NCBI GenBank assembly: GCA_023665905.1
Contig: JAMPDA010000002.1
Location: 27,832 to 91,831, forward strand
DNA length: 64,000 nucleotides
DNA from: Roseburia sp.
GTDB lineage: Bacteria; Bacillota; Clostridia; Christensenellales; Pumilibacteraceae
Reading direction: 5' to 3'
Shown: positions 858 through 64,000 of the stretch, one piece after another
Layout of the letters: each line of letters starts with the position of its first letter
Numbering within the stretch: position 1 is the stretch's first letter
Notes under the pieces: model-generated
What the model saw: only the letters and a program-made list of their open reading frames with translations
Told to the model about the DNA's origin: nothing
Database searches by the model: none
Program-made: the position numbers and the translations under genes

Positions 858-1333
858 TGCTCAGTCCCAACAAAGTCAAACACCGCAGAGTCCAGCGCGG
901 CAGAATGAAAGGCAAAGCGGCTCGCGGCAATAAGATAGCATACGGCGAGTACGCGCTCGTCAGCGAAGATCCGGGCAGGATCACCTCCAACCAGATAGAG
1001 GCGGCGCGTGTCGCGATGACGCGATACACCAAGCGCGGCGGCAAGGTTTGGATATGCATATTCCCCCACAAACCGTATTCCAAAAAGCCCGCCGACACCC
1101 GTATGGGTAGCGGTAAGGGCGCGCCGGAATACTGGGCGGCTGTTGTAAAGCCGGGCACGGTGATGTTCGAAATGGCAGGCGTAGCCGAGCCGATCGCGCG
1201 TGAGGCGCTCCGCCTTGCGTCGTACAAACTCCCCGTGCGTTGCAAGATCGCCAAGAAGGGCGAGCCGGGCTACGAGGACGACAACACGGCGGACGCAAGC
1301 GCCGCAGAGCCGTCCGAGGCTAAGGAGGTTTAA
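857..1333 (+). CDS. rplP: 50S ribosomal protein L16 with acidic C-terminal extension
   Basis: [11 protein letters not shown]..., [12 protein letters not shown] motif. Confidence 0.99.
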
Positions 1334-1335
1334 CG

Positions 1336-1542
1336 ATGAAAGAAAAAGTTCATGAGCTGAGAGACGACGAATTGCAGCAGAAGCTCGCGTCGCTTAAGAC
1401 CGAGCTGTTCAATCTTCGGTTTTCCCACGCGACGGGTCAGCTTGCAAATCCTTTGCAGATACAAAACGTCAGACGCGACATAGCGCGCGTAAAAACGGTC
1501 ATAAGAGAGCGCGAGCTGCGCGCCGACAAGGAGGCGAAGTAA
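1336..1542 (+). CDS. rpmC: 50S ribosomal protein L29
   Basis: ELFNLRF...GQLANP...RRDIARVKT motif. Confidence 0.98.
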
Positions 1543-1796
1543 TGGAACGCAACGACAGAAAGACCCGCGAAGGTTTGGTCGTATCGAACAAAATGGATAA
1601 AACGGTAGTCGTCTCCGTCACCGAAAAGTACAAGCATCCGCTGTACAAAAAGACGGTCACGCGCCTCAAACGCTTTAAGGCGCACGACGAAAACAACGAG
1701 TGCGGAGTGGGCGACAGAGTGGAGATAATCGAGACCCGTCCCATTTCCAAGGACAAGTGCTGGCGGGTAAACCGCATAGTCGAAAAGGCAAAATAA
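1542..1796 (+). CDS. rpsQ: 30S ribosomal protein S17
   Basis: [27 protein letters not shown] motifs. Confidence 0.99.
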
Positions 1797-1940
1797 TAGG
1801 CTACCGCGGAACGCGCGGCGAAACATTTTCGTCGCCTTGCGCAAGAGCCGTGCGTCACGAGCCGCGTTGCGGCAAAAGTACGGACGCATACAGAATACAA
1901 GCAAACGCGCTTAAACCATTTGCGCGTCAAGGAGTAAATC

Positions 1941-2309
1941 ATGATACAGCCTCAATCGTATCTTAAGGTTGCCGACAACACAGGCGCCAAAGAGATAATG
2001 TGTATACAGGTTATGGGCGGGTCCTTCCGTCGGAGCGGAAACATCGGCGACATCATTACTGCGTCGGTCAAGTCCGCGCAGCCGGGCGGCACCGTTAAGA
2101 AGGGCGACGTCGTAAAGGCGGTCATCGTGCGCACCCATCAGGGCGTAAACCGTCCCGACGGCTCGCACATTCGTTTCGACGACAACGCCGCAGTTATAAT
2201 AGACAACCAAAAGCAGCCGCGCGGCACCCGTATATTCGGACCGATCGCGCGCGAACTGCGCGACCGCGACTTCACAAAGATCATATCTTTGGCGCCCGAA
2301 GTACTTTAA
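1941..2309 (+). CDS. rplN: 50S ribosomal protein L14
   Basis: [18 protein letters not shown]...IISLAPEVL. Confidence 0.99.
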
Positions 2310-2324
2310 ACGGAGGATCGGCAA

Positions 2325-2870
2325 ATGAATCTCAACGTCAGAAAAGGCGACAACGTAAAAGTTTTGACGGGCAAAGACCGCGGCAAGACAGGCAAAGTAT
2401 TGGCGACCGATCCCAAGACCGGCAAGGTGTTGGTGGAAGGCGTCAATTACGCCACGCACCATTTAAAAGCGCGTTCGGCGACCGAGCAGGGCGGTAAGAA
2501 AAAGGTAGAAGCTCCCCTCGACGTCAGCAATGTGCAGATCATATGCCCGTCGTGCGGTCAGAACGTGCGCGTGCGCCATCAGAAGATCGACGGCAAAAAC
2601 GCGCGCATATGCGTCAAATGCGGAGCGAGCTTGGACGCGGCGTTAAAGGCGGACAAGAGCAAAAAGAAGGCGGACAAAAAAGCCAAAAAGGCAAAAACCG
2701 CCGAGCAGGCAGCCGAAGCTGCCGAGGCGACGCAGAACGAAGCGCCTGCCGAGGAAGTGAAAAAGCCGACCGCAAAAAAGACCGCGGCAAAGAAGCCCGC
2801 GGCTAAGAAAGCGGCAGAAAAAGAAGTTCCCGTCGGCGAAGCGTCGGACGGTAAAACAAGTAAGGAGTAA
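2325..2870 (+). CDS. rplX: 50S ribosomal protein L24 with long Lys/Ala/Glu-rich C-terminal tail
   Basis: [22 protein letters not shown] motif, EAPLDVSNV; low-complexity tail follows. Confidence 0.98.
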
Positions 2871-2875
2871 CGGTA

Positions 2876-3499
2876 ATGGCAGAAAAAGCGACCAAAGCCA
2901 AGGCTAAGGCGGACACCGCCGTCAAAGCCGGCAGACCCGAAAAATCGACTAATCCGGAGCGTTACAGGCTTCGCAAGCGTTATAAAGCGGAGATCGTTCC
3001 GCAGCTCATGAAAGAGCGCGGTTACAAGAACGTCAACGAAGTCCCCAAGATCGAGAAAATAGTTCTCAACATGCGTTTGGGCGACATCAAAGACAATTCC
3101 AAGAGCATACAGCTCGCACAGGCGGAGTTAGAGGCTATAGCCGGACAGAAGTGCGTGCTCGTAAAAGCCAAGAAGTCGGTCAGTAACTTCAAGCTTCGCG
3201 AAGGTCAGTCCATAGCGATAAAAGCGACGTTGCGCGGCGAAATGGCGTACGAGTTCTTCGACAGGCTCGTGTCGATAGCGCTTCCGCGCGTGCGCGACTT
3301 CCGCGGAATTTCGGGCAAGTCGTTCGACGGCCGCGGCAACTATGCCGTCGGCGTCAAGGACCAGACGATATTCCCCGAGATATCGTACGAACTTATAGAA
3401 AAGGTGCGCGGCTTCGACGTGGATATCGTCACGACCGCCCGCACCGACGAAGAAGCAAAATTACTGCTGACGAAGCTCGGCATGCCGTTCAAAAATTAA
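2876..3499 (+). CDS. rplE: 50S ribosomal protein L5 with N-terminal extension
   Basis: [27 protein letters not shown] motifs. Confidence 0.99.
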
Positions 3500-3509
3500 G
3501 GAGTGAATT

Positions 3510-3695
3510 ATGGCTAAAAAAGCGATGATCAACAAACAGCAAAGAGTGCCGAAGTACAAGACGCGCGCTTACACGCGTTGCAGTATCTGCGGCCGTCCGC
3601 ATTCGGTGCTCAAAAAGTACGGCGTATGCAGAATTTGCTTTCGCGAGCTTGCGTATAAGGGAGAGATCCCCGGCGTAAAGAAGTCGAGCTGGTAA
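3510..3695 (+). CDS. rpsN: 30S ribosomal protein S14, Zn-binding (type Z) form
   Basis: 61 aa with CSIC...CRIC zinc motifs. Confidence 0.98.
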
Positions 3696-3708
3696 GGAGG
3701 TATAAGTT

Positions 3709-4104
3709 ATGGTAACAACAGATCCTATCGCGGATTTGCTTACGAGAATCCGAAACGCTATCACCGCGCGGCACGAAACCGTATTGATACCCAATTCCAA
3801 GATGAAAAAATCGATCGTCGATATTCTCGTCAACGAAGGGTTTGTGTCGTCGTGCGAAATAACGGAAGAAAACGGTCACAGCAATATCAAAGCCGTGCTC
3901 AAGTACGACGGCAAAAGAAATGCAATTACCAATCTCAAGCGCATATCGAAGCCCGGTCTTCGCGTGTACTGCGGATGTGAAGACCTGCCCAAGGTACTCG
4001 GCGGCTACGGTATCGCCATCATATCCACATCGCGCGGCGTCATGACCGACAAAAAAGCGCGCGAGCTCAAGGTGGGCGGCGAAGTGCTCGCCTACGTGTG
4101 GTAG
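3709..4104 (+). CDS. rpsH: 30S ribosomal protein S8
   Basis: [31 protein letters not shown]. Confidence 0.99.
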
Positions 4105-4113
4105 GAGGTAGGT

Positions 4114-4659
4114 ATGTCGCGTATAGGCAGAAAACATATCGATGTGCCGGCGGACGTAACGGTTTCGTTTGCGGACGGCGTAGTCACAGTCAAGGGCAAG
4201 CTCGGCGAGCTTAAGCAGGAGATAAAATCTCCCGACATAAAAGTCGTCATCGGCTCGGGCGTGGTAAACGTAGAGCGCGCCAACGACGACAAGCAGACCC
4301 GTGCGTACCACGGTCTTTACCGCCAGCTTATAGCCAACATGGTATCCGGCGTACAAAAGCCGTTCACCAAAACGCTCATCGTAGCCGGCGTAGGTTACAA
4401 AGTAGCGGTCAACGGAAACAAGCTCGTCATGAACATCGGCTATTCCAAGCCTGTGGAATACATCATTCCCGAGGGCATTACGGTCGCATGTCCCGATCCG
4501 CTTACGATAGCGGTGAGCGGCATCAACAAGGAATTCGTCGGCGAGGTCGCGGCTCAGATAAAAGCCAAACGTCCGGTCGAGCCGTATCACGGCTACGGCT
4601 TGCACTACAGCGACGAAGTCGTAGTCCGCAAGGAAGCCAAGACGGCAGGTAAGAAATAG
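4114..4659 (+). CDS. rplF: 50S ribosomal protein L6
   Basis: MSRIGRK start, [13 protein letters not shown]. Confidence 0.99.
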
Positions 4660-4670
4660 GAGAACGGGTT

Positions 4671-5033
4671 ATGATCAAAAAGATAGATAAAAACAAAGTT
4701 CGCGCAAAGCGTCACGAGCGGTTGCGTCACAACCTCAAGGGCACGGCGCAGCGTCCGCGCCTTGCGGTCTACCGCTCTACGAGCCATATATACGTGCAGG
4801 TCATCGACGACGACAAGGGCGTGACCCTCGTATCGAGCAGCACGCTCGTCAAGGGCGCCGATCTGTCCGGCAAGACCAAAACGCAGCAGGCGGAGTTTGT
4901 CGGCAAGGATATTGCCGCCAAAGCCAAAAAGAAAGGCATAACCGAAGTGGTTTTCGACCGCGGCGGATATCTGTACACAGGCAGAGTGAAAGCGCTCGCC
5001 GACGCGGCAAGAGCCGCCGGACTCACATTCTAG
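4671..5033 (+). CDS. rplR: 50S ribosomal protein L18
   Basis: [31 protein letters not shown]. Confidence 0.99.
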
Positions 5034-5043
5034 GAGCTTAATC

Positions 5044-5568
5044 ATGGCACGCGAAGATTTCAGAAAGAAAAGAGATAAGGACGTCGTAGACGACGGCATC
5101 AAGACCAAGCTCGTCGCCACTCGGCGCGTATGCAAGGTCGTTAAGGGCGGTCGCAACAGCAGCTTTGCCGCGCTTGTAGTCGCAGGCGACGGCAAGGGCA
5201 GAGTGGGCGTCGGCATGGGCAAAGCGACGGAAGTTCCCGAAGCCATCAAAAAGGCGGAACAGGCGGCGCGGCGCAACATGAAAACCATTTCGCTCAACGG
5301 CACGTCCATTCCGCACGAAGCGCTCGGCAAGTTCGCATGCAGCAAAGTTCTGTTGCGTCCGGCAGCCGAAGGTCGAGGCGTCATAGCCGGCGGCAGCGTC
5401 CGCGCGGTGCTCGAGCTGTGCGGCATAAACAACATCACGACCAAGTGCTACGGCTCGCGCAACCCCATCAACGTGGTCAAAGCTACGATGAACGCGCTCA
5501 CCTCGCTGCGCACTCTCGATCAGGTCGCCGCTCTGCGCGGAAAGACCGTAGACGAGATCCTCGGCTGA
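5044..5568 (+). CDS. rpsE: 30S ribosomal protein S5
   Basis: KVVKGGR...FAALVVAGDGKGRVG, GVIAGG. Confidence 0.99.
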   Translation: MAREDFRKKRDKDVVDDGIKTKLVATRRVCKVVKGGRNSSFAALVVAGDGKGRVGVGMGKATEVPEAIKKAEQAARRNMKTISLNGTSIPHEALGKFACSKVLLRPAAEGRGVIAGGSVRAVLELCGINNITTKCYGSRNPINVVKATMNALTSLRTLDQVAALRGKTVDEILG

Positions 5569-5635
5569 TAGCGCCGTACAAGACGGCAAACAACAACGAC
5601 GGCAAGCGTCCGGCGACACAGGAGGTCATTGTAAA

Positions 5636-5836
5636 ATGGCGAAAAAGACTGAAAACAAAAAGCTAAACGTCACGCTCGTAAAAAGCACTGCGGGACGTCT
5701 GGAAAAACAGCAGCGCACGGTTGAGGCGCTCGGGCTTAAAAAGATACACCAAACGGTGACCGTTCAGGACACGCCGGCTATGCGCGGCATGATAAGAACG
5801 GTATGTCACCTCGTTACGGTGACCGAAGCGGAGTAA
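5636..5836 (+). CDS. rpmD: 50S ribosomal protein L30
   Basis: TLVKS...TVEALGLKK...TPAMRGMI. Confidence 0.97.
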   Translation: MAKKTENKKLNVTLVKSTAGRLEKQQRTVEALGLKKIHQTVTVQDTPAMRGMIRTVCHLVTVTEAE

Positions 5837-5921
5837 CCGTACGGCGCGCCCTTGCGCGGCGAGGGCAAACGGCTCGGCATAAAACGCAATCGTCGAGCGT
5901 CAATAGGAGGAACAGCAAATC

Positions 5922-6371
5922 ATGAAAATGCATGCATTGATGCCGGCGGACGGCGCAAATACCAAGAAGAAACGCTTGGGTCGCGGTACCGGCTCCGGTC
6001 TCGGCAAGACGTCCGGCAAGGGACATAAAGGTCAGTGGGCGCGCAGCGGCGGCGGCGTACGTCCCGGCTTCGAGGGCGGTCAGATAACGCTCATGCGCAG
6101 ACTGCCCAAGCGCGGTTTCAACAACAAATTCCAAAAGGAATTTTCGGTCGTCAACGTTGACAAGCTCAATGCTTTTGCCGACGGCACGGTCGTGGACCTC
6201 AAGCTCTTGGTCGAAGCCGGCGTAGTCAAAAAGGTCGAAGCTTACGGGCTTAAAATACTCGGCGACGGCGAGCTCACCAAAAAGCTCACGGTCAAAGCGG
6301 CTAAGTTCACCGCTTCCGCCAAAGAAAAAATAGAAAAAGCGGGTGGAAAGGCAGAGGTCGTAAATGTTTGA
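5922..6371 (+). CDS. rplO: 50S ribosomal protein L15
   Basis: [27 protein letters not shown]. Confidence 0.99.
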
Positions 6372-7665
6372 AACGCTTAAAAATGCTTTCAAAAACAAAG
6401 AGGTCCGCACAAAGCTTTTAATAACCATCGGACTTCTGTTTATATACCGCCTCGGCTGCTGGATCCCCGTACCGGGCATAGCTGCGTCCGTTTATGCGGA
6501 CAGCGTTACGTCCGACTCGCTGCTCGGGCTCTTGAGCGGCATCACGGGTAGCGCGTTGCAAAACGGCGCGTTGTTTGCCATAGGTATAACGCCGTACATC
6601 AACGCCTCGATTATTTTGCAACTGCTCACCGTCGCCATTCCGCGCCTGCAGGAATATCAAAAGCAGGGCGACGACGGCAAAAAGAAGATCACTCAGATCA
6701 CGCGATATATAACGATCGTTCTCGCGCTGGCGCAGTCCATCGGCATTACCGTTTCTTACGGCCGCGCAGGCGCGCTGTCCAACGACGTGTTCGGTCCGAT
6801 GACGCAGGAATGGCTGATAGGCATGTTCGTATGCGTACTGCTCGTCGCCGGCTCGATGTTCACCATGTGGCTGGGCGAGCGCATTACGGACTACGGCGTA
6901 GGCAACGGCATAAGCCTGCTTATATTCGTAGGTATCGTCGCGACCGCCGGTCTTTCGATAGTCAGCAAATTCCAAGAAGCTTTCGGCGGAAATCAGATGG
7001 CGATTTGGGAGCTTATCGGCTTTGCGATAATGGTGACGCTTGTATTCCTCCTTATAGTCTTTGTGGATCTTGCGGAGCGCCGCGTGCCCGTTCAGTACGC
7101 CAAGCAGATCAAGGGCAGAAAGCAGTACGGCGGACAGAGCACGTTCATTCCCGTAAAAGTCAATGCGAGCGGCGTTCTGCCCATAATCTTCGCAACGGCT
7201 ATAATAACTTTCCCTCAAATGATAGCGCAGCTCGTCGCGCCCAACAGCGGTTTTTACGCCTGGTGGATGAAGTGGCTGGGCGCGGGAAGCTGGATATACT
7301 CCATACTCGTCGCGCTGCTGATACTGTTCTTCTCGTACTTTTACGCACAAATACAGTTCAATCCCGAGGACATCTCGCGAAACATACAGCAGTACGGCGG
7401 ATTTATCAACGGCATACGTCCGGGCAAGCCGACTACCGAGTACCTCTCGCGTATATCCAAAAGATTGACGCTATTCGGCGCGATATATCTCGCGTTCATA
7501 GCGCTCGTTCCGTCGGTCATTTTCGCGGCGGTGCTGAGCGACGCGACGCTCGTCAACGCGTTCTCCGCAACGGGAATGCTCATCGTTGTGTCCGTCGCAT
7601 TGGAGTTCGACAAACAGCTTCAGAGCCTTATGATGATGAAGCAGTACAAGGGCTTTTTAAAGTAA
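6364..7665 (+). CDS. secY: preprotein translocase subunit SecY
   Basis: Multi-TM; [34 protein letters not shown] motifs. Confidence 0.99.
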
Positions 7666-7726
7666 GTCCCGAGCGGGTATCCCGCAAAATTCGGTCGCGT
7701 GCGATGTCGCACCGCAAGGAGGCAGC

Positions 7727-8344
7727 ATGAACATCATAATAATGGGCGCGCCCGGGTCGGGCAAAGGCACGCAAGCCGCGCTTATCTGCAAAGCGCACGA
7801 CATTCCGCACATCTCGACGGGCGATCTTCTCCGCAAGAACATAGCGGACGGCACCGAGCTCGGCAAACAGGCAAAGGCGTTCATGGACGCCGGAAAGCTC
7901 GTTCCCGACGAACTCGTCATCGCGCTGTTAAAGGCGCGGCTGTCCGAGGCGGACTGCAAAAACGGGTTCCTGCTCGACGGGTTTCCGAGAAACGAAGCGC
8001 AAGCCGACGAGCTTGCCAAAGTGACGAAGATAGACGTCGCGCTGAACCTTGAAACAGACCTCGATAAGCTCGCGGACCGCATGGCAAGCCGCAGGACTTG
8101 CACTAAGTGCGGTTTCACCACGAGCGCATCCGCCGCTCCCGACGGCAAGTGCAAGCAGTGCGGCGCAGACCTCGTCATTCGCGACGACGACAAGCGCGAA
8201 GTCGTGGAGAACAGACTTAAGGTCTATGCGGAAAACACCGCGCCGCTCGTCGGGTACTACAAAAAAGCCGGCGTGCTCAAAAACATCGACGGCATGGCTT
8301 CGATAGAAGCGGTAAACGCGGATATCGAAAAAGCTCTCCGATGA
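7727..8344 (+). CDS. adk: adenylate kinase (Zn-lid type)
   Basis: GAPGSGKGTQA P-loop, LDGFPR, CxxC lid motifs. Confidence 0.99.
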   Translation: MNIIIMGAPGSGKGTQAALICKAHDIPHISTGDLLRKNIADGTELGKQAKAFMDAGKLVPDELVIALLKARLSEADCKNGFLLDGFPRNEAQADELAKVTKIDVALNLETDLDKLADRMASRRTCTKCGFTTSASAAPDGKCKQCGADLVIRDDDKREVVENRLKVYAENTAPLVGYYKKAGVLKNIDGMASIEAVNADIEKALR

Positions 8345-9081
8345 TAGTCAAGACCGAAGCCGAACGCAACGGCATGCGCGCCGCCGGTCGCGTCGTCAAA
8401 GCGGCGCTCGACGCGGCGGAAAAGTTCATTAAGGTCGGTGTCACCACCCTCGAGATCGACGCGGTCGTCGAGGAAACGATACGCAGTATGGGCGCTATCC
8501 CGTCGTCCAAAGGCTTTCAGGGCTACCCCAACGCGTCGTGCATATCGGTAAACGACGTAGTGGTCCACGGGATACCGTCTTTGGCGGTCGTTAAAGACGG
8601 AGACATAGTGTCTGTAGACATTACCGCACTTTTAAACGGATATCAAAGCGACGCCGCGCGCACCTTTGCGGTCGGCAACGTGTCCGCGCAGGACCGCGCG
8701 CTCATCGGCGCGGCGGAAGCGGCGTTCGCCGCCGGCATAGAGTATGCCGTTTCGGGCAATCGCGTGGGCGACGTGTCGAGCGCCATACAGCTCTATTCCG
8801 AGCTGCACGGTTATGGAGTAGTTCGCGCGCTCACCGGTCACGGCATAGGCAGAAGGATGCACGAGCCGCCCGAGGTGCCCAACTTCGGCAAGCGCCGCAC
8901 GGGCGCACCGCTCAAAGCCGGCATGTGCTTGGCTATCGAGCCGATGATAACGCGAGGTGATTGGCGCGTGTACTGCGAGCGCGACGGCTGGACGGTCCGC
9001 ACAGCGGACGGAAGCAACGCGGCGCACTACGAAAACACGGTCATCGTCACCGACGGCGCGCCCGAAATTCTCACTCTTTAG
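8341..9081 (+). CDS. map: type I methionine aminopeptidase
   Basis: CISVNDVVVHGIP, GHGIGRRMHE, AIEPMI, AAHYENT. Confidence 0.98.
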   Translation: MIVKTEAERNGMRAAGRVVKAALDAAEKFIKVGVTTLEIDAVVEETIRSMGAIPSSKGFQGYPNASCISVNDVVVHGIPSLAVVKDGDIVSVDITALLNGYQSDAARTFAVGNVSAQDRALIGAAEAAFAAGIEYAVSGNRVGDVSSAIQLYSELHGYGVVRALTGHGIGRRMHEPPEVPNFGKRRTGAPLKAGMCLAIEPMITRGDWRVYCERDGWTVRTADGSNAAHYENTVIVTDGAPEILTL

Positions 9082-9090
9082 CGAGGGGTC

Positions 9091-9345
9091 ATGGAAACGG
9101 GCGACATAGTTATCAGTCTGGCGGGACACGACCGCGGCAAGCCGTTTGTCATAGTCGCACAGGTGAGCGAAAAGTTTGCGCTCATCGCCGACGGGCAGAC
9201 GCGGAGCTTGGAAAACCCAAAGCTCAAACGAACCAAGCATTTACGGGCAGTCGAAAAAAGCGGACTGGAAAACCCGTCGAACGCATCGCTGAAAAAGCGA
9301 TTGAAAAAATTTATCTCGGAAAGGAGGGTATATGCCGAGAAGTGA
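9091..9345 (+). CDS. KOW-domain RNA-binding protein (L14e-like)
   Basis: [17 protein letters not shown] motif; usual position between map and infA in Clostridia. Confidence 0.9.
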
Positions 9346-9553
9346 CAATATCGAAGCCGAAGGCACCGTCGAAGAATGTTTGCCGGGGACCAAGTTCAAG
9401 GTAAAGCTCGACAACGGCGCAACGGTACTGTGTACGATAGCAGGCAAAATGCGTGTCAACTACATCAAGGTACTGCTGGGCGACAGAGTTAAAGTAGCGA
9501 TATCGCCCTACGACATCACAAAAGGCATAATCACGTTCCGCAGCAAAAATTAG
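9332..9553 (+). CDS. infA: translation initiation factor IF-1
   Basis: EGTVEECLP...[17 protein letters not shown]...SPYD. Confidence 0.98.
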
Positions 9554-9599
9554 CTTTGGCAACGAAGCTCCGATCCAAAACCTCAATAGGAGAAACATC

Positions 9600-9716
9600 A
9601 TGAAAGTCAGATCTTCCGTAAAACCCATGTGCGACAAGTGCAAAGTGATCCGCCGTCACGGCAAGGTCATGGTCATTTGCAGCAAAAACCCCAGCCATAA
9701 ACAGCGTCAGGGCTAA
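9600..9716 (+). CDS. rpmJ: 50S ribosomal protein L36 (below ORF-track cutoff)
   Basis: Manual translation [38 protein letters not shown]; RBS AGGAG upstream. Confidence 0.99.
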
Positions 9717-59134: not shown

Positions 59135-59683
59135 ATGAGAAAACGTTTGTTAATAGGGACCGCGGCAGTCGCGGTTTGCCTGTCGGCGGGGATCGCGTTG
59201 ATCGGTTGCGGCGGGAACGGCGACTGCGGCGAGAACGGAAACGACGGCGCGTCGGCGGATACGGTCGGAAGCGGCGTGCAGTCGACCGCGTCCACGCTTC
59301 GGTTTGACTCCAAGTACTATACGGATATGGACGGAACTGCCGAAGAGCGCGGCTATTTTACTTTTAGCGAGAACGGCATGGGGAAGTATTATTATTACTA
59401 TTCCTATTACGATAGTTACGATAAAATTTCGGAGATATCAAATTATACGATATCGTTCAAGTATATCTTTACGAATGCGGAAAAAACGCAGGTAGCGTGT
59501 TTTTACGACGGCGTGACGTATACCGCAAAGGATAACCAAAAGGACGCGCGGACGGATTGGGATAGAATATTCGACGTGTCGGAAGAGCTTTTGATTTCGG
59601 AAGGTATGTACGGACGCTATATAGCGGCGATAAACGAAGATTTTCAAAAGCAGATCCCCAACTACGGCGTAACAGCCGACTAA
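59135..59683 (+). CDS. hypothetical lipoprotein
   Basis: Signal with lipobox LIG-C; GGAGGG RBS. Confidence 0.75.
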   Translation: MRKRLLIGTAAVAVCLSAGIALIGCGGNGDCGENGNDGASADTVGSGVQSTASTLRFDSKYYTDMDGTAEERGYFTFSENGMGKYYYYYSYYDSYDKISEISNYTISFKYIFTNAEKTQVACFYDGVTYTAKDNQKDARTDWDRIFDVSEELLISEGMYGRYIAAINEDFQKQIPNYGVTAD

Positions 59684-59785
59684 ATAAATTAGGTATTATA
59701 CCACAGGGCAAGCCCTGAAACTTACACGCTACGCGTGCAAGTTTCGTTAGCCCCGCGGCGGGGAAAATACCAAATTTGTCGTCGT

Positions 59786-59899
59786 CGGCAGCCAAATGCT
59801 GCGCGACCTATTGCTTACTCACTCACTTTGATAGAATGCGTAATAAATAACTATTCAATCTGTGATTGCGCAATCGGGCAAAAATGCTCCTCGAATAAA
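59786..59899 (-). repeat. ~114-bp dispersed intergenic repeat, copy 2 (inverted relative to copy 1)
   Basis: Reverse complement aligns with 48859-48971. Confidence 0.8.
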
Positions 59900-60009: not shown

Positions 60010-60086
60010 GCACCCGTAGCTCAGCTGGATAGAGTATCAGATTCCGATTCTGAGGGTCGCAAGTTCGAATCTTGTCGGGTGTACCA
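60010..60086 (+). tRNA. tRNA-Arg(CCG)
   Basis: GCACCCG acceptor, TCAGA-TTCCGAT-TCTGA anticodon arm, GTTCGAATC, ACCA end, hairpin terminator after. Confidence 0.97.
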
Positions 60087-60252: not shown

Positions 60253-60708
60253 ATGAAACTCAATCAAAAGGAAACGCAGTTGATCACGGAACTGAAGACG
60301 CAGGAGCAGCTTTGCGTGCAAAAGTACGATTTCTATGCCGCGCAGGCGAAGGACCCCGAGCTTAAAAGCCTTTTTAAGCAGATATCCAAGCACGAACAGA
60401 ACCATTTCGACATGCTCGACAGCCTCATGAACGGGGTCGTGCCGCAGATAAAGCACAAGGCGCCGCTCGCCGCCAACTACAATCCGCAGGCGACAAACAC
60501 GGGCGACAAGGCGAGCAAGGATTTCGACAAGTTCCTCTGCACAGACATCATCGCCACCGAAAAATATGTCGCCACCGCCTACAACGACGATCTGTTCTAC
60601 TTCGCCTCGACGGACGTTCGCAACATTCTCAACGCCATCATGACCGACGAGCAGAACCACGCCGAAATGATCTGGAAGTACAAGGTCGCCAACAAGATGG
60701 CGGCGTGA
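60253..60708 (+). CDS. ferritin-like / spore coat (CotF-like) four-helix protein
   Basis: Two ExxH motifs (EQNH twice), ELKTQEQLCVQKY, DIIATEK; start uncertain, no clear RBS. Confidence 0.7.
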   Translation: MKLNQKETQLITELKTQEQLCVQKYDFYAAQAKDPELKSLFKQISKHEQNHFDMLDSLMNGVVPQIKHKAPLAANYNPQATNTGDKASKDFDKFLCTDIIATEKYVATAYNDDLFYFASTDVRNILNAIMTDEQNHAEMIWKYKVANKMAA

Positions 60709-60860
60709 TCCGATCGAACCCGATAAACATTGCAACGCACGGCACTAAAGCCGTGCGTTTTTCCGTGCCTACTATTTAGGCACGCGCGTAATTCATACGT
60801 TTCTTGTCTTTGCCGCGCGTGCAAACGGTAGACAAAATATTCGAAATGCCGATACGGGAT

Positions 60861-60910
60861 CCAACAAAAACCAACGAAAAGCAACGAAAAGCAACACCAT
60901 AAAGCAACAT
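60861..60910 (+). repeat. 10-bp-period direct repeat array upstream of the HlyD gene
   Basis: CCAACAAAAA CCAACGAAAA GCAACGAAAA GCAACACCAT AAAGCAACAT, then TGGTAAAAT (extended -10-like). Confidence 0.7.
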
Positions 60911-61056: not shown

Positions 61057-62166
61057 ATGGGTAGACTTTATACTTATTCGGAGCTAAAAGAAAGCCGGCT
61101 TATTTATGATAGGAAGCCGCCTATGTTCGGTATTGTCATGACGGCGCTCAGTCTCGCTTTTGTGGTGGGCGTGTTGTTGTGGGCAGGACTTTCTACAAAG
61201 ACGTACGTTGTAAGAGCGACGGGCGTTGTTACGGCAAGCAATAAAATCAACATAATGAATTATGCGTCGGGCGCGATAGAAAGTATCGAAGTGTCCGAGG
61301 GCGAAACCGTGACCGAAGGAGATACATTGCTCGTGATCGACAGTTTTCAGGCGGAATTACAGATAGAGCAGGTAAGATCGGTCGTGAAACTGTATCAAGA
61401 TAAGATAGAATGCTTGTCGCGTCTAATCTCTTTTGTAAACGATTATTCTTTAAACGATGCAAACACTCATGCCAATCCGTTTGATAAAAACAACATCGAT
61501 ACGGCTAAGGAGTATTCGGACGCGGAATATTTTATAGCATATGTCGAGAGTAGCGTTGAACAAGCAGAAGGCTCCGATCGAGAGTTTACTCAAGCAGAGT
61601 TGGACAACATGAAAACGGCATATCTGACACAGCAATCGGTTTACAGTAGCTTGGACCAAAACATCGCAGAAAAGGCGCGTCAGGAAAGTCAGTTGAAAAT
61701 GTATGAGGACAGTTTGGTCGAGTATACGATAAAAGCCGCCGGAAGCGGCGTGGTACACTTTAATTCCGGCTTGACGATAGGGACGGTACTGCAGTCCGGA
61801 ACTCTACTCGGAAACATATCGAGCGCAGCAAGCGATGACCTATATTTTTCATTGGCTGTGAGTGCGACCGAGCGCAGTAAGCTATCCGTCGGGACTTCGA
61901 CCGAAATCGCGGTCAGCGGCGCTATGCAAACCGAGTTCGGCACGCTCGAAGGCGTTGTTGCCGCTATAGACAGTGACAGCACGCAAACCGATGACGGACA
62001 AGTATATTACATAGTTAAGATCAAGCCGAGCGCCGCCGAGCTTTCGGACAAGAGCGGCAGAACGGTTGAGTTGAAGCCCGGTATGATAGGAGAATGTCGT
62101 ATAAAGTATGCCGAAACGACATATCTGAAATGGGCGGTGGAGCAGATAGTCGGGAAGCTCCGTTAA
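61057..62166 (+). CDS. HlyD/LcnD-like membrane-fusion accessory protein of a peptide exporter
   Basis: N-terminal TM, VSEGETVTEGDTL lipoyl-like half, coiled coil, IKAAGSGVV, LKPGMIGECRI. Confidence 0.9.
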   Translation: MGRLYTYSELKESRLIYDRKPPMFGIVMTALSLAFVVGVLLWAGLSTKTYVVRATGVVTASNKINIMNYASGAIESIEVSEGETVTEGDTLLVIDSFQAELQIEQVRSVVKLYQDKIECLSRLISFVNDYSLNDANTHANPFDKNNIDTAKEYSDAEYFIAYVESSVEQAEGSDREFTQAELDNMKTAYLTQQSVYSSLDQNIAEKARQESQLKMYEDSLVEYTIKAAGSGVVHFNSGLTIGTVLQSGTLLGNISSAASDDLYFSLAVSATERSKLSVGTSTEIAVSGAMQTEFGTLEGVVAAIDSDSTQTDDGQVYYIVKIKPSAAELSDKSGRTVELKPGMIGECRIKYAETTYLKWAVEQIVGKLR

Positions 62167-62223
62167 TTTTGTTAAGTCTGCATGGGCTGAAAATAAAAAA
62201 CTTTATGGAGGTAAAAAAGTACT

Positions 62224-62679
62224 ATGACAAATACAAATGTCATGAAAAGGGCAAGCGGCTTGGTAATGCCTACGCACTACGTCGAACTCGATGCGGACGA
62301 AATGTCTTACGTTGACGGCGGAGATTTCTTTGTCGGCATAAACCTTTCCGCTTCTTTTTGCGGCGCATTGGCTAGCTATGTTCCGATGTCTATGAAAACC
62401 GGCGGTGTCGGGTTAGGCTCGTTTTTTAGTGTTGCCATGTCGATTCCGCAAGTGAACGCCGTGGTTGCGCCTATTTTAGCGGGCGTTAAAGCCGGACTTG
62501 CGGCAATCCCCATAATAGGCTGGATTGCTATAGGCGTTTTAGCGGCGGCAACGATAACTGTTTTAGCCACTGCACTGTATGCTGGAACACAGGGTAAAGG
62601 CTTTAAATTTGGGTTCAATGTACGAACCGGCTGGTTCGGAATTCCAAAAGGTGCTAATTTTGTCTGTGAAATAAAGTGA
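62224..62679 (+). CDS. bacteriocin-like precursor 1 (33-aa double-glycine leader, 118-aa hydrophobic core)
   Basis: Leader ...LVMPTHYVELDADEMSYVDGG; Gly/Ala-rich hydrophobic core; GGAGG RBS. Confidence 0.8.
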   Translation: MTNTNVMKRASGLVMPTHYVELDADEMSYVDGGDFFVGINLSASFCGALASYVPMSMKTGGVGLGSFFSVAMSIPQVNAVVAPILAGVKAGLAAIPIIGWIAIGVLAAATITVLATALYAGTQGKGFKFGFNVRTGWFGIPKGANFVCEIK

Positions 62680-63170
62680 GAATTATGGACGACAAAGAAT
62701 ACAAAGAAACATCGTATATATGTGTAGCTATGCTGATAGCTTTTGTGTTATTTCCGGCATTTTGTTTTATCACGATAATTTTCGGGTATGAATGGAATGC
62801 TTTTATAATCACGGAATGCATATTGGCGGCGCTGATAATACCTTGTTTTATTCTTCGTACCATATTTTTGCTTAAATACAGGCAATACACATCTAAAAAA
62901 CGCTTCTTGTTCGAAACGATCGCATATATAGCTTGTTTGGCTTTTGCGTTCGGCACGGGATTTGCGGTACACGAAAGCGACGGGGTGTTTACATATTACT
63001 TGCTCAACATTTATATCCAGCCGGTGTTTATTATCTTTACTCTGGTAGTGATGGGATATCATGTAGCAACCGCTAAAAAAGTGGCAAAAGCGAGCCTTGC
63101 CGAGGACAAGCGAAGAAAGAACGAGCATTATAAATCGTTATATCCGAGCGATTCGGATCCGGACGAGTAA
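62676..63170 (+). CDS. putative immunity membrane protein (about 4 TM)
   Basis: Overlaps the precursor stop (GTGA); hydrophobic, AT-rich, basic tail. Confidence 0.6.
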   Translation: MRIMDDKEYKETSYICVAMLIAFVLFPAFCFITIIFGYEWNAFIITECILAALIIPCFILRTIFLLKYRQYTSKKRFLFETIAYIACLAFAFGTGFAVHESDGVFTYYLLNIYIQPVFIIFTLVVMGYHVATAKKVAKASLAEDKRRKNEHYKSLYPSDSDPDE

Positions 63171-63213
63171 GCAGACCGGCTCATGCAGGCTTATATTTTT
63201 TAAGGAGGTCTTT

Positions 63214-63705
63214 ATGCCTAAGATAGAATTCAGGGAAAACAAAACACTCAAACTCACAAACGTGCTATCTCGCAAGGTGCCCGAAAAGGAAATCTTCAAT
63301 CAGGACAAGCAGATAAGCATGCTCATGAATTGGATCAAAGCCAAGGGACATGAATCGTTCGGCCCGTTGATCATATACAGCTCCGGTATAAAGGGAGCGG
63401 ACGCGGAGGGTGAGCCCATCATTGATTCGAGGATCATGATCCAGCTCAAAGCATCAAATGTTCGTATCGAAATGCCGTATCGTTTCGAACGCGAAATGCG
63501 CGTGCCGAGCTGCCTGCTTGCGCGGTTCGACGGCGATGGGGATAAGATACAGCACGCCGTTAATAAGCTTACGCTGTACGCTTATGAGAACGACATAGAG
63601 CTCACGGGCGAAACTTACATAGTTTTGATGGAGCAACAGGAAAACAGGATATTTGCAGACGTGTTTATGCCTGTTATGACGGGTAATGAAGGCGGCTGTG
63701 AGTAA
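63214..63705 (+). CDS. DUF5085-like / GyrI-like effector-binding protein
   Basis: Start MPKIEF after AAGGAGG; FGPLII, CLLARF, YAYENDIEL.GETY pattern. Confidence 0.6.
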   Translation: MPKIEFRENKTLKLTNVLSRKVPEKEIFNQDKQISMLMNWIKAKGHESFGPLIIYSSGIKGADAEGEPIIDSRIMIQLKASNVRIEMPYRFEREMRVPSCLLARFDGDGDKIQHAVNKLTLYAYENDIELTGETYIVLMEQQENRIFADVFMPVMTGNEGGCE

Positions 63706-63806
63706 ATATATGCATTTGGAGGTGCCTCATGTACAAGTATATTCCACCGTAATTTTATGTAGATAAATAATACAAAACCGAAAAAATACCAAGGAGGTCT
63801 TTAAAG

Positions 63807-64000
63807 ATGACTGATAATGCGGTTTTAAATCATGTAAGCAATTTGGTTATGCCCACTCATTACGTAGAGCTTGACAGCGACGAAATGAGCTACGTTGACG
63901 GCGGGTGGATTGTTACCGTCAACCTGCACTTATACATATCGATGGGCGGACTAATTTCCGGATTGGCAAGCGGATTTATTACCGGTGCAATAACTGCTGC
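63807..64000 (+). CDS. bacteriocin-like precursor 2, truncated by the window end (not in ORF track)
   Basis: Manual translation MTDNAVLNHVSNLVMPTHYVELDSDEMSYVDGG-WIVTVNLHLYISMGGLISGLASGFITGAITA; AAGGAGG RBS. Confidence 0.85.
   Translation, partial: MTDNAVLNHVSNLVMPTHYVELDSDEMSYVDGGWIVTVNLHLYISMGGLISGLASGFITGAITA

Follow-up and report, generated by a model that had tools for sequence, protein, structure and literature searches.

The right edge of the window, by which we mean the whole stretch of 64,000 nucleotides analyzed here (C22:27832-91831, in a genome of 1.82 Mb and 49 contigs), raises the question of what is secreted when two neighboring genes encode nearly the same double-glycine (GG) leader joined to two dissimilar cores, and what role is played by the membrane protein gene that follows each of them. 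Contig C22 runs 32.7 kb past the window end, and the genes located there were read as well. On one and the same strand, the gene order is hlyD, precursor 1, membrane gene 1, a GyrI-like gene, precursor 2, membrane gene 2 and the gene for a C39-peptidase ABC exporter (PCAT), after which come host replication genes on the opposite strand. This is almost certainly a PCAT/GG-leader secretion locus; that its cargo consists of bacteriocin-like toxins with membrane immunity is the reading that we favor, with moderate confidence, from the comparison of related loci. The elements recognized in the first-pass annotation of the window, namely HlyD, precursor 1, an overlapping gene for a protein with approximately four transmembrane (TM) segments, a soluble gene and precursor 2, were all recovered at the positions given below. 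Its broader description of the locus, with GG precursors served by a C39 ABC exporter and HlyD, polymorphic cassettes of a precursor and a membrane gene, and unusually large cores, agrees with the gene content and with the co-variation described here.

Precursor 1 (62224-62679, plus strand) is a protein of 151 aa that consists of a 33-aa leader (62224-62322) and a 118-aa core (62323-62679). Precursor 2 starts at 63807, reaches the window end at 64000 and continues on the same strand to C22:92120, 289 nt farther, so that on the contig it comprises 160 aa, with a 33-aa leader and a 127-aa core. As the first-pass annotation had noticed, the leaders are shared and the cores differ: the final 21 leader positions are identical except for one (LVMPTHYVELD[A/S]DEMSYVDGG), a likeness far beyond chance, and each of the two copies scores ~80 bits against a hidden Markov model (HMM) of the leader (80 bits for that of precursor 1), whereas BLASTP, even with a threshold as permissive as E<=100, aligns no part of the two cores. 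Leaders processed by C39 peptidases end in GG (or GA/GS) at positions -2/-1, are hydrophobic at -4, -7, -12 and -15, and in most cases have an acidic residue at -8 (PMC7018657; PMC12184118). Both precursors satisfy this double-glycine leader rule with G-1, G-2, V-4, M-7, E-8, L-12 and Y-15, and both have in addition a proline at -18.

The transporter had been placed outside the window in the first-pass annotation, which held that its absence from the genome would speak against the proposed reading; an intact PCAT gene is present ~1.2 kb past the window end (C22:93340-95580, plus strand). The encoded protein of 746 aa, with an N-terminal C39 domain, is the sole C39-domain ABC protein in the genome. 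With TIGR01193, 'peptide cleavage/export ABC transporter', its score is 610.6 bits, above the cutoff of 523.85; that with Peptidase_C39 is 118 bits. The protein aligns over the full length with PCAT1 (4ry2; E 6e-176), with its DCGAAC and HFVVV motifs aligned to C21 and H99 of PCAT1 and the catalytic Cys/His context kept. The HlyD-family membrane-fusion/accessory protein (61057-62166, plus strand; 369 aa) matches Pfam HlyD_3 with 46 bits; its scores against TIGR01843 (114 bits) and against the bacteriocin accessory family TIGR01000 (71 bits) are both below the respective cutoffs. Orthologs of 60-63% identity in related loci (L003, L005 and L006) back the start codon at 61057. PCAT is expected to bind the leader, to cleave after GG and to export the 118- and 127-aa cores, with the HlyD adaptor aiding. 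The additional cassettes that the first-pass annotation proposed to look for farther along the contig are not there: the array closes at the PCAT gene with exactly two cassettes, and no further cassettes, leaders of this type or C39 transporters were found elsewhere in the genome. No modification enzymes were detected in the locus by protein-family scans.

What the membrane genes might do is suggested by the behavior of the cassettes across related loci. Membrane gene 1 (62676-63170, plus strand), the putative immunity gene for core 1, encodes 164 aa with 4 hydrophobic segments, and its start overlaps the precursor-1 stop by 4 nt; membrane gene 2, located past the window after precursor 2 on the same strand, encodes 213 aa with six hydrophobic segments. 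Four related metagenomic loci that have the same layout as the window were reached through homologs of the precursors; the closest relatives of the genes here are found in metagenome-assembled genomes (MAGs) labelled Christensenella, Candidatus (Ca.) Coproplasma and Borkfalkiaceae. In L003, a precursor 1 homolog of 74% identity is followed by a copy of membrane gene 1 at 65%, which is the only homolog of this gene; in L005, a precursor 2 homolog, also at 74%, is followed by a copy of the 6-TM membrane gene 2 at 44%; and L006 carries two different cores together with two different membrane genes. No cross-matches were seen between non-cognate membrane genes in the compared loci, and the genes around the cassettes are conserved (PCAT at 79-84%, the GyrI-like protein at 69-77% and HlyD at 60-63% identity). 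Because each core type reappears in the company of its cognate membrane gene, with conserved export genes on either side, the pattern is that of toxin/immunity cassettes, and the co-variation of cores with membrane genes supports a toxin/immunity reading, as far as sequence comparison goes. Among the 20 precursors of related loci for which a script could assign the downstream open reading frame (ORF), that ORF has at least 2 hydrophobic segments in 15 cases; otherwise it is another precursor or a single-segment ORF. No known immunity family is matched by the membrane genes of either cassette, which vary together with the core type from locus to locus, and membrane gene 1 matches no family in Pfam or NCBIfam.

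The cores themselves are Gly/Ala-rich, cationic and hydrophobic, with two long hydrophobic stretches apiece. Core 1 has a mass of 12.0 kDa, an isoelectric point (pI) of 9.6 and a grand average of hydropathy (GRAVY) of 0.99; core 2 has 12.5 kDa, pI 10.0, GRAVY 0.89 and 13 GxxxG motifs. Homologs of precursor 1 form only three clusters in 5.8 billion sequences (62-74% identity), and those of precursor 2 form approximately twenty, most of which have the leader alone in common with it. The leader family is far larger. The search with a leader HMM that had been proposed on first inspection was performed with a profile of 33 positions, built from six leaders, against 1.84 billion representatives; it yielded 151 clusters at E<=1e-3, with the match N-terminal every time, each cluster being a distinct core at the 50% identity level. 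Among 148 sequences of this family, the median leader is 32 aa and the median core 97 aa (maximum 132 aa), 95 cores are at least 90 aa long, and the median GRAVY is 0.82. Precursor 2 matches the Pfam family PF10439, Bacteriocin_IIc, with 28.2 bits (cutoff 27.1), over a stretch that takes in the leader; precursor 1 matches no bacteriocin model in Pfam or NCBIfam. Class II bacteriocins are small, heat-stable proteins with a mature core usually below 10 kDa (about 25-70 aa), and both cores exceed this usual size limit.

The soluble gene located between the two cassettes (63214-63705, plus strand; 163 aa) was initially described as DUF5085-like and as a member of the cassette array, and we see it differently on both counts. 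The protein has no match in Pfam (E<=1) or NCBIfam, a match to DUF5085 is seen in only 3 of 40 family members (E 5e-4 at best), and a PDB profile search gave nothing significant. An AlphaFold2 (AF2) model built from the alignment of these 40 sequences, with a predicted local distance difference test score (pLDDT) of 89, replaced a single-sequence model (pLDDT 38), which was discarded. With the alignment-based model, Foldseek returned 31 PDB matches at E<=1e-3, nearly all of them GyrI-like or SOUL-type, at a TM-score of ~0.6. These include CTR107, CtaZ (closthioamide self-resistance), STM3175 (albicidin resistance) and SbmC/GyrI, as well as the effector domains of EcmrR, BmrR (C-terminal) and Rob. 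As modelled, the 163-aa protein has the GyrI-like duplicated beta-alpha-beta-beta fold.

This protein forms ~110 clusters, mostly at 55-82% identity and nearly all unnamed, and it is 69-82% identical across loci with differing cores. Since the GyrI-like protein is conserved from one cargo to the next, it is no immunity protein for a particular cassette; judged by its sequence conservation, its gene is a component of the conserved export gene set rather than part of a cassette. A scan of species-representative genomes identified 77 GyrI-like loci, in 57 of which homologs of both PCAT and HlyD are encoded beside the GyrI-like gene; most of the remaining loci are cut by a contig end or contain only a fragment of the gene. 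Gene order varies among these loci; in most of them, the GyrI-like gene and hlyD have stop-to-stop frames that touch or overlap. The hosts include Christensenellales, termite-gut Clostridiales, Butyrivibrio, a Clostridium and many Faecalibacterium species. In addition, PCAT, GyrI-like and HlyD homologs are present on four contigs from termite guts that were binned as Methanomassiliicoccaceae or Ca. Methanoplasma (L025, L030, L033 and L083), and in L025 there is also an ORF whose leader is of the window type (MPAKYVELSADEMEY.GG); these contigs reflect either transfer into archaea or mis-binning.

A function in export in general, or one associated with the leader, appears most likely for the GyrI-like protein, which could be a general cytoplasmic helper of this exporter type and may bind the extended leader box, NLVMP at -22 to -18 in the window leaders, or retain the oily cargo until its export. 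Leader alignment A4 has P(-18) without exception, and a strict P(-18) GG-leader pattern is matched by 50 ORFs in 34 of the 77 GyrI-like loci, compared to 0.4 in shuffles; all 50 are on the same strand as the GyrI-like gene. In pneumococci, experiments demonstrated that secretion through RtgAB requires the leader region from -22 to -18, of which P(-18) is part (PMC7018657).

Expression of the locus might be controlled by a two-component system encoded elsewhere in the genome. Tandem ~10-bp repeats (TCCAACAAAAACCAACGAAAAGCAACGAAAAGCAAC) at 60860-60895 on the plus strand, ~160-195 nt upstream of hlyD, make a candidate operator; the run reads CCAACGAAAAG CAACGAAAAG CAAC. Elsewhere in the genome, this motif is present only on contig C14, twice and inverted, in the gap between a response regulator gene and a kinase gene, and related motifs occur in the intergenic regions between the regulator gene and hlyD in L003 and L006. 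In five related loci (L003, L004, L005, L006 and L009), hlyD is divergent from genes for this response regulator, which combines receiver and Spo0A_C domains (Spo0A_C 69 bits), and for a ~480-aa multi-TM kinase with a HATPase_c_5 domain, a family that we take to include AgrC-type peptide sensors, hence our term AgrC-like. The C14 genes are the orthologs in this genome (regulator 74% and kinase 63% identical to those of L005), and no export genes are present near them. The second-best match to the regulator, on contig C46, is only 27% identical; the C46 protein is probably the true Spo0A and the associated regulator a paralog of it, by sequence similarity. The regulator is inferred from the shared motif to bind the repeats upstream of hlyD, and the unlinked pair of AgrC-like kinase and Spo0A-type regulator probably switches on expression through them.

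The gap between regulator and kinase genes holds an antisense ORF of 15-19 codons in this genome and in 12 other loci. Copies were located at C14:17758-17808 (L007 7759-7809, minus strand), and also at L003 6504-6554, L005 1767-1817, L006 6572-6622, L009 5010-5060 and in L085-L097. The product is rich in aromatic residues, with the consensus MW..F[WF].W[FIL]...; the 16-codon copy of this genome encodes MWARFFNWFSSLFMFR, and others include MWKSFWSWFRSLWFIH and MWAEFIKWFRSFWYFG. A strong Shine-Dalgarno sequence precedes each copy and, in most of the ten that were examined in detail, a hairpin follows the stop codon. Across ten copies of 16 codons, the third codon position is the most variable (0.59 vs 0.43 and 0.49). 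On this evidence, the micro-gene is a candidate for a leaderless pheromone or a kinase-modulating peptide, and the repeats lie upstream of the C14 micro-gene in its reading direction, which is the arrangement that an auto-induction loop would need. In L097 (3569-5864; a Ca. Coproplasma MAG), the regulator/micro-gene/kinase module is divergent from a gene set without hlyD that encodes a subtilase, a 301-aa secreted hydrophobic protein and a 168-aa membrane protein, and a repeat motif similar to the one upstream of hlyD lies between module and gene set; the reach of the module may extend to several types of secreted cargo. A C-terminal motif that the 301-aa protein seemed by eye to share with precursor 1 gave a BLASTP E of 3.3, and no claim is made for it.

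The locus is restricted to few relatives and differs in composition from its surroundings. Over an ~8.6-kb block (L001 ~1000-9600), which begins close to tRNA-Arg(CCG) and ends with the exporter gene, the GC fraction is 0.41-0.51, compared to 0.57-0.62 in both flanks, so the region is indeed AT-richer than its surroundings, as had been noted from the window. The tRNA-Arg(CCG) gene (60010-60086, plus strand; identified by ARAGORN and Rfam) lies in the block near its left edge and is the sole Rfam match in the locus. A gene for a CoatF/ferritin-like protein (60256-60708) is located between this tRNA gene and hlyD, also within the low-GC block. With the GyrI-like gene used as a marker, the system was detected in 9 of 301 species genomes of the order, in 6 of 150 genera, and in none of the other 13 sampled genomes of the family, the same-genus one included. 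This patchiness and the low GC content mark an accessory, horizontally moving locus. Shuffles contain promoter-like sites at least as often as the locus does, and a strong terminator on the plus strand was not found between its genes.

Direct repeats of ~200 nt were initially considered as attachment sites of an island, and were rejected when a genome BLAST search revealed a dispersed element with dozens of copies; with so many copies in the genome, the direct repeat says nothing specific about this locus. The element is an intergenic, modular repeat of ~170-290 nt, found at 59683-59897 of the window, at C22:93004-93286 and in dozens more copies on most contigs; it begins with AATAAATTAGGTATTATACC.CAGGGCA.GCCCTG and resembles miniature inverted-repeat transposable elements (MITE) or repetitive extragenic palindromic (REP) sequences. 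Two copies bracket the region from tRNA-Arg through cassette 2, with one of them directly upstream of the PCAT gene, behind the short one-segment ORF that follows membrane gene 2 on the contig.

Taken together, these observations lead us to propose that a horizontally acquired, PCAT-dependent locus secretes two unmodified, cationic and very hydrophobic GG-leader proteins of ~12 kDa. The exported cores would most likely be membrane-active bacteriocins, and each downstream multi-TM protein would protect the producer from its own core. Several points weigh against this proposal. The cores are 2-3 times the typical class II length, and a cargo of 118-127 aa would be near or above the cavity of PCAT1, which is estimated at ~15,000 cubic angstrom and accommodates a cargo of 66 aa (PMC6959990). 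The two-component system is encoded on another contig, with the shared motif as the only link, and the dispersed repeat between cassette 2 and the PCAT gene makes co-transcription uncertain in this strain. The peptides of the analogous pneumococcal rtg locus are suspected to be bacteriocin-like, but their function could not be determined (PMC7018657). That locus contains a 'GyrI-like hypothetical protein', rtgX, which is present in only 21% of rtg loci (PMC7018657) and so is hardly indispensable there. Finally, the best-studied cargo of a homologous export set is MAM of Faecalibacterium, which is abundant in the envelope and is not known as a toxin. MAM is a protein of 135 aa, with a GG leader and a 113-aa cargo, that is probably exported by the neighboring PCAT; it ranks first in abundance among the envelope proteins of F. 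duncaniae and has been described as an envelope lattice protein (PMC12184118).

The alternative that fares best is that the cores are MAM-like cargo that stays in the envelope of the producer in a structural or membrane-modulating role, with the membrane genes as insertion or anchoring partners. The export set (PCAT, GyrI-like protein and HlyD) and the leader type MP..Y...EM.YV.GG are common to this locus and the Faecalibacterium loci, and a CoatF-domain gene is present upstream here, while the mam gene has also been reported near sporulation genes (PMC8836110). Nevertheless, we consider this unlikely: MAM cores have no meaningful similarity to those described here, are far less hydrophobic and come without a paired membrane gene; the cores under the constant leader are hypervariable (the 151 clusters at 50% identity); core and membrane gene swap as units, a better fit to antagonism than to structure; and presence in 9 of 301 genomes is unlike an essential envelope component.

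Less probable again is a role as cannibalism or sporulation-linked toxins that are aimed at non-induced siblings and switched on by the paralog of the sporulation master regulator. SdpC/SdpI and Skf of Bacillus subtilis provide the model for such toxins. The Spo0A_C domain of the associated regulator and the CoatF gene adjoining the locus agree with this possibility, as do the multi-TM partner genes, which resemble SdpI-type membrane immunity in outline. Against it, the regulator is a paralog and is unlinked in this genome, and cannibalism would be a sub-case of the bacteriocin reading, with the target range not distinguished by the evidence at hand.

That the precursors are secreted signalling peptides (pheromones) processed by PCAT, an alternative raised in the first-pass annotation, has very little to commend it: some PCATs do export pheromones (PMC7018657) and relatives carry a two-component system beside the locus, but the cores are 118-127 aa long with two long hydrophobic segments each, each locus has two unrelated cores that are both paired with a membrane partner, and the conserved 16-codon gene in the kinase/regulator module is a much better signal candidate.

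If the bacteriocin reading is correct, unmodified double-glycine bacteriocins extend to hydrophobic proteins of 12 kDa, and current mining tools, by capping or down-weighting cores of such size, leave without annotation a family that numbers at least 151 clusters in Clostridia of the gut and rumen. MAM, a much-studied protein of a gut commensal, would gain an evolutionary frame in which the same export set and leader type serve toxin/immunity-like cassettes elsewhere in the Clostridia. From the GyrI-like gene and the P(-18) box together would come a testable idea of the way in which PCATs choose large cargo and deal with it, a question left open by the work on pneumococcal RtgAB, and the 16-codon gene might encode a peptide signal of a new kind that a membrane kinase senses. 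A more speculative extension, to which we assign less than even chances, is that PCAT, HlyD and a cytoplasmic GyrI-like factor constitute a three-part exporter type that has gone unrecognized, serving GG cargo of ~100-130 aa, with the P(-18) box read by the GyrI-like protein. Its branches would be MAM export in Faecalibacterium and, in Christensenellales, a shuffling arsenal of giant, membrane-active bacteriocins under a new quorum circuit, in which an aromatic 16-aa peptide without a leader would act together with an AgrC-like kinase and a Spo0A-paralog regulator.

Among known systems, the closest solved exporter structure is that of PCAT1 of Acetivibrio thermocellus, the cargo of which, CtA, is likewise a small protein rather than a short peptide; the differences are the shorter CtA leader (24 aa) and the smaller cargo (66 aa) (PMC6959990). 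No GyrI-like homolog from A. thermocellus turned up in the scan of species-representative genomes. Class II bacteriocins (PF10439, with LcnC/LcnD-type export) have in common with the window locus a GG leader, a PCAT with a HlyD-type accessory protein, cationic, Gly-rich, hydrophobic cores with GxxxG motifs, an immunity-like gene directly downstream and the lack of modification enzymes. They differ in core length, which is ~40 aa in one survey of double-glycine bacteriocins (bioRxiv 10.1101/2024.07.15.603639) compared to 118-127 aa (12 kDa) here, and they have neither the 33-aa leader with an extra conserved N-terminal box nor the extra conserved GyrI-like gene.

Homologous PCAT, HlyD and GyrI-like genes flank mam in many Faecalibacterium genomes, and at least 20 Faecalibacterium-type loci have an ORF with the MAM leader pattern between the exporter gene and the GyrI-like/HlyD pair. 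It has been reported that the PCAT gene near mam keeps close to a cluster of three ORFs, hypothetical ORFs including HlyD (PMC8836110); the GyrI-like protein is named neither there nor in the envelope study (PMC12184118). The published MAM leader pattern, MMMPANx(8,11)VxGG (PMC12184118), is matched literally by Faecalibacterium-type loci only, and the window leaders (LVMPTHY...VDGG) fail it. Aligned with each other, the MAM leader MMMPANY..AENEMTYV.GG and the window leader LVMPTHYVELD.DEMSYVDGG nevertheless have in common P at -18, an aromatic residue at -15, E-M at -8/-7, V at -4 and GG, and loci of Butyrivibrio, Clostridium and Lachnospiraceae have precursors of this layout next to the GyrI-like gene. 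The cargo is also of similar size (113 aa). On the other hand, MAM has a GRAVY of 0.23 and no hydrophobic segment, compared to 0.82-0.99 and mostly 1-3 segments here, lacks a paired membrane gene and is near-universal in its genus, in contrast to the patchy window locus. Homology of the cores themselves was considered and dropped: a phmmer comparison of 21 MAM cores with 164 leader-family cores gave one marginal match (E 9e-5, 16 bits). In an uncultured Faecalibacterium sp. (L028, 6039-7644), four tandem small ORFs downstream of the PCAT gene combine GG leaders of the MAM-like or P(-18) type with cores that differ, a cassette-like array inside Faecalibacterium. Overall, leader and gene comparisons indicate that the export machinery and leader type of the window locus are related to those of the Faecalibacterium MAM/PCAT locus, so that the family, which had been called uncharacterized, is not without known relatives in its leader type and export set.

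With the pneumococcal rtg locus, the comparison rests on the published description. Both systems combine a PCAT and an accessory protein with polymorphic GG peptides, most of which are followed by an immunity-like gene, and both have a GyrI-like gene in the locus. In rtg, a leader motif at -22 to -18 that includes P(-18) is needed for secretion by RtgAB; in the window leaders, NLVMP occupies these positions. They differ in regulation, which in rtg is cytoplasmic Rgg/SHP control, unlike the membrane kinase and Spo0A_C regulator encoded in relatives of the window locus. By description, then, the window locus resembles rtg.

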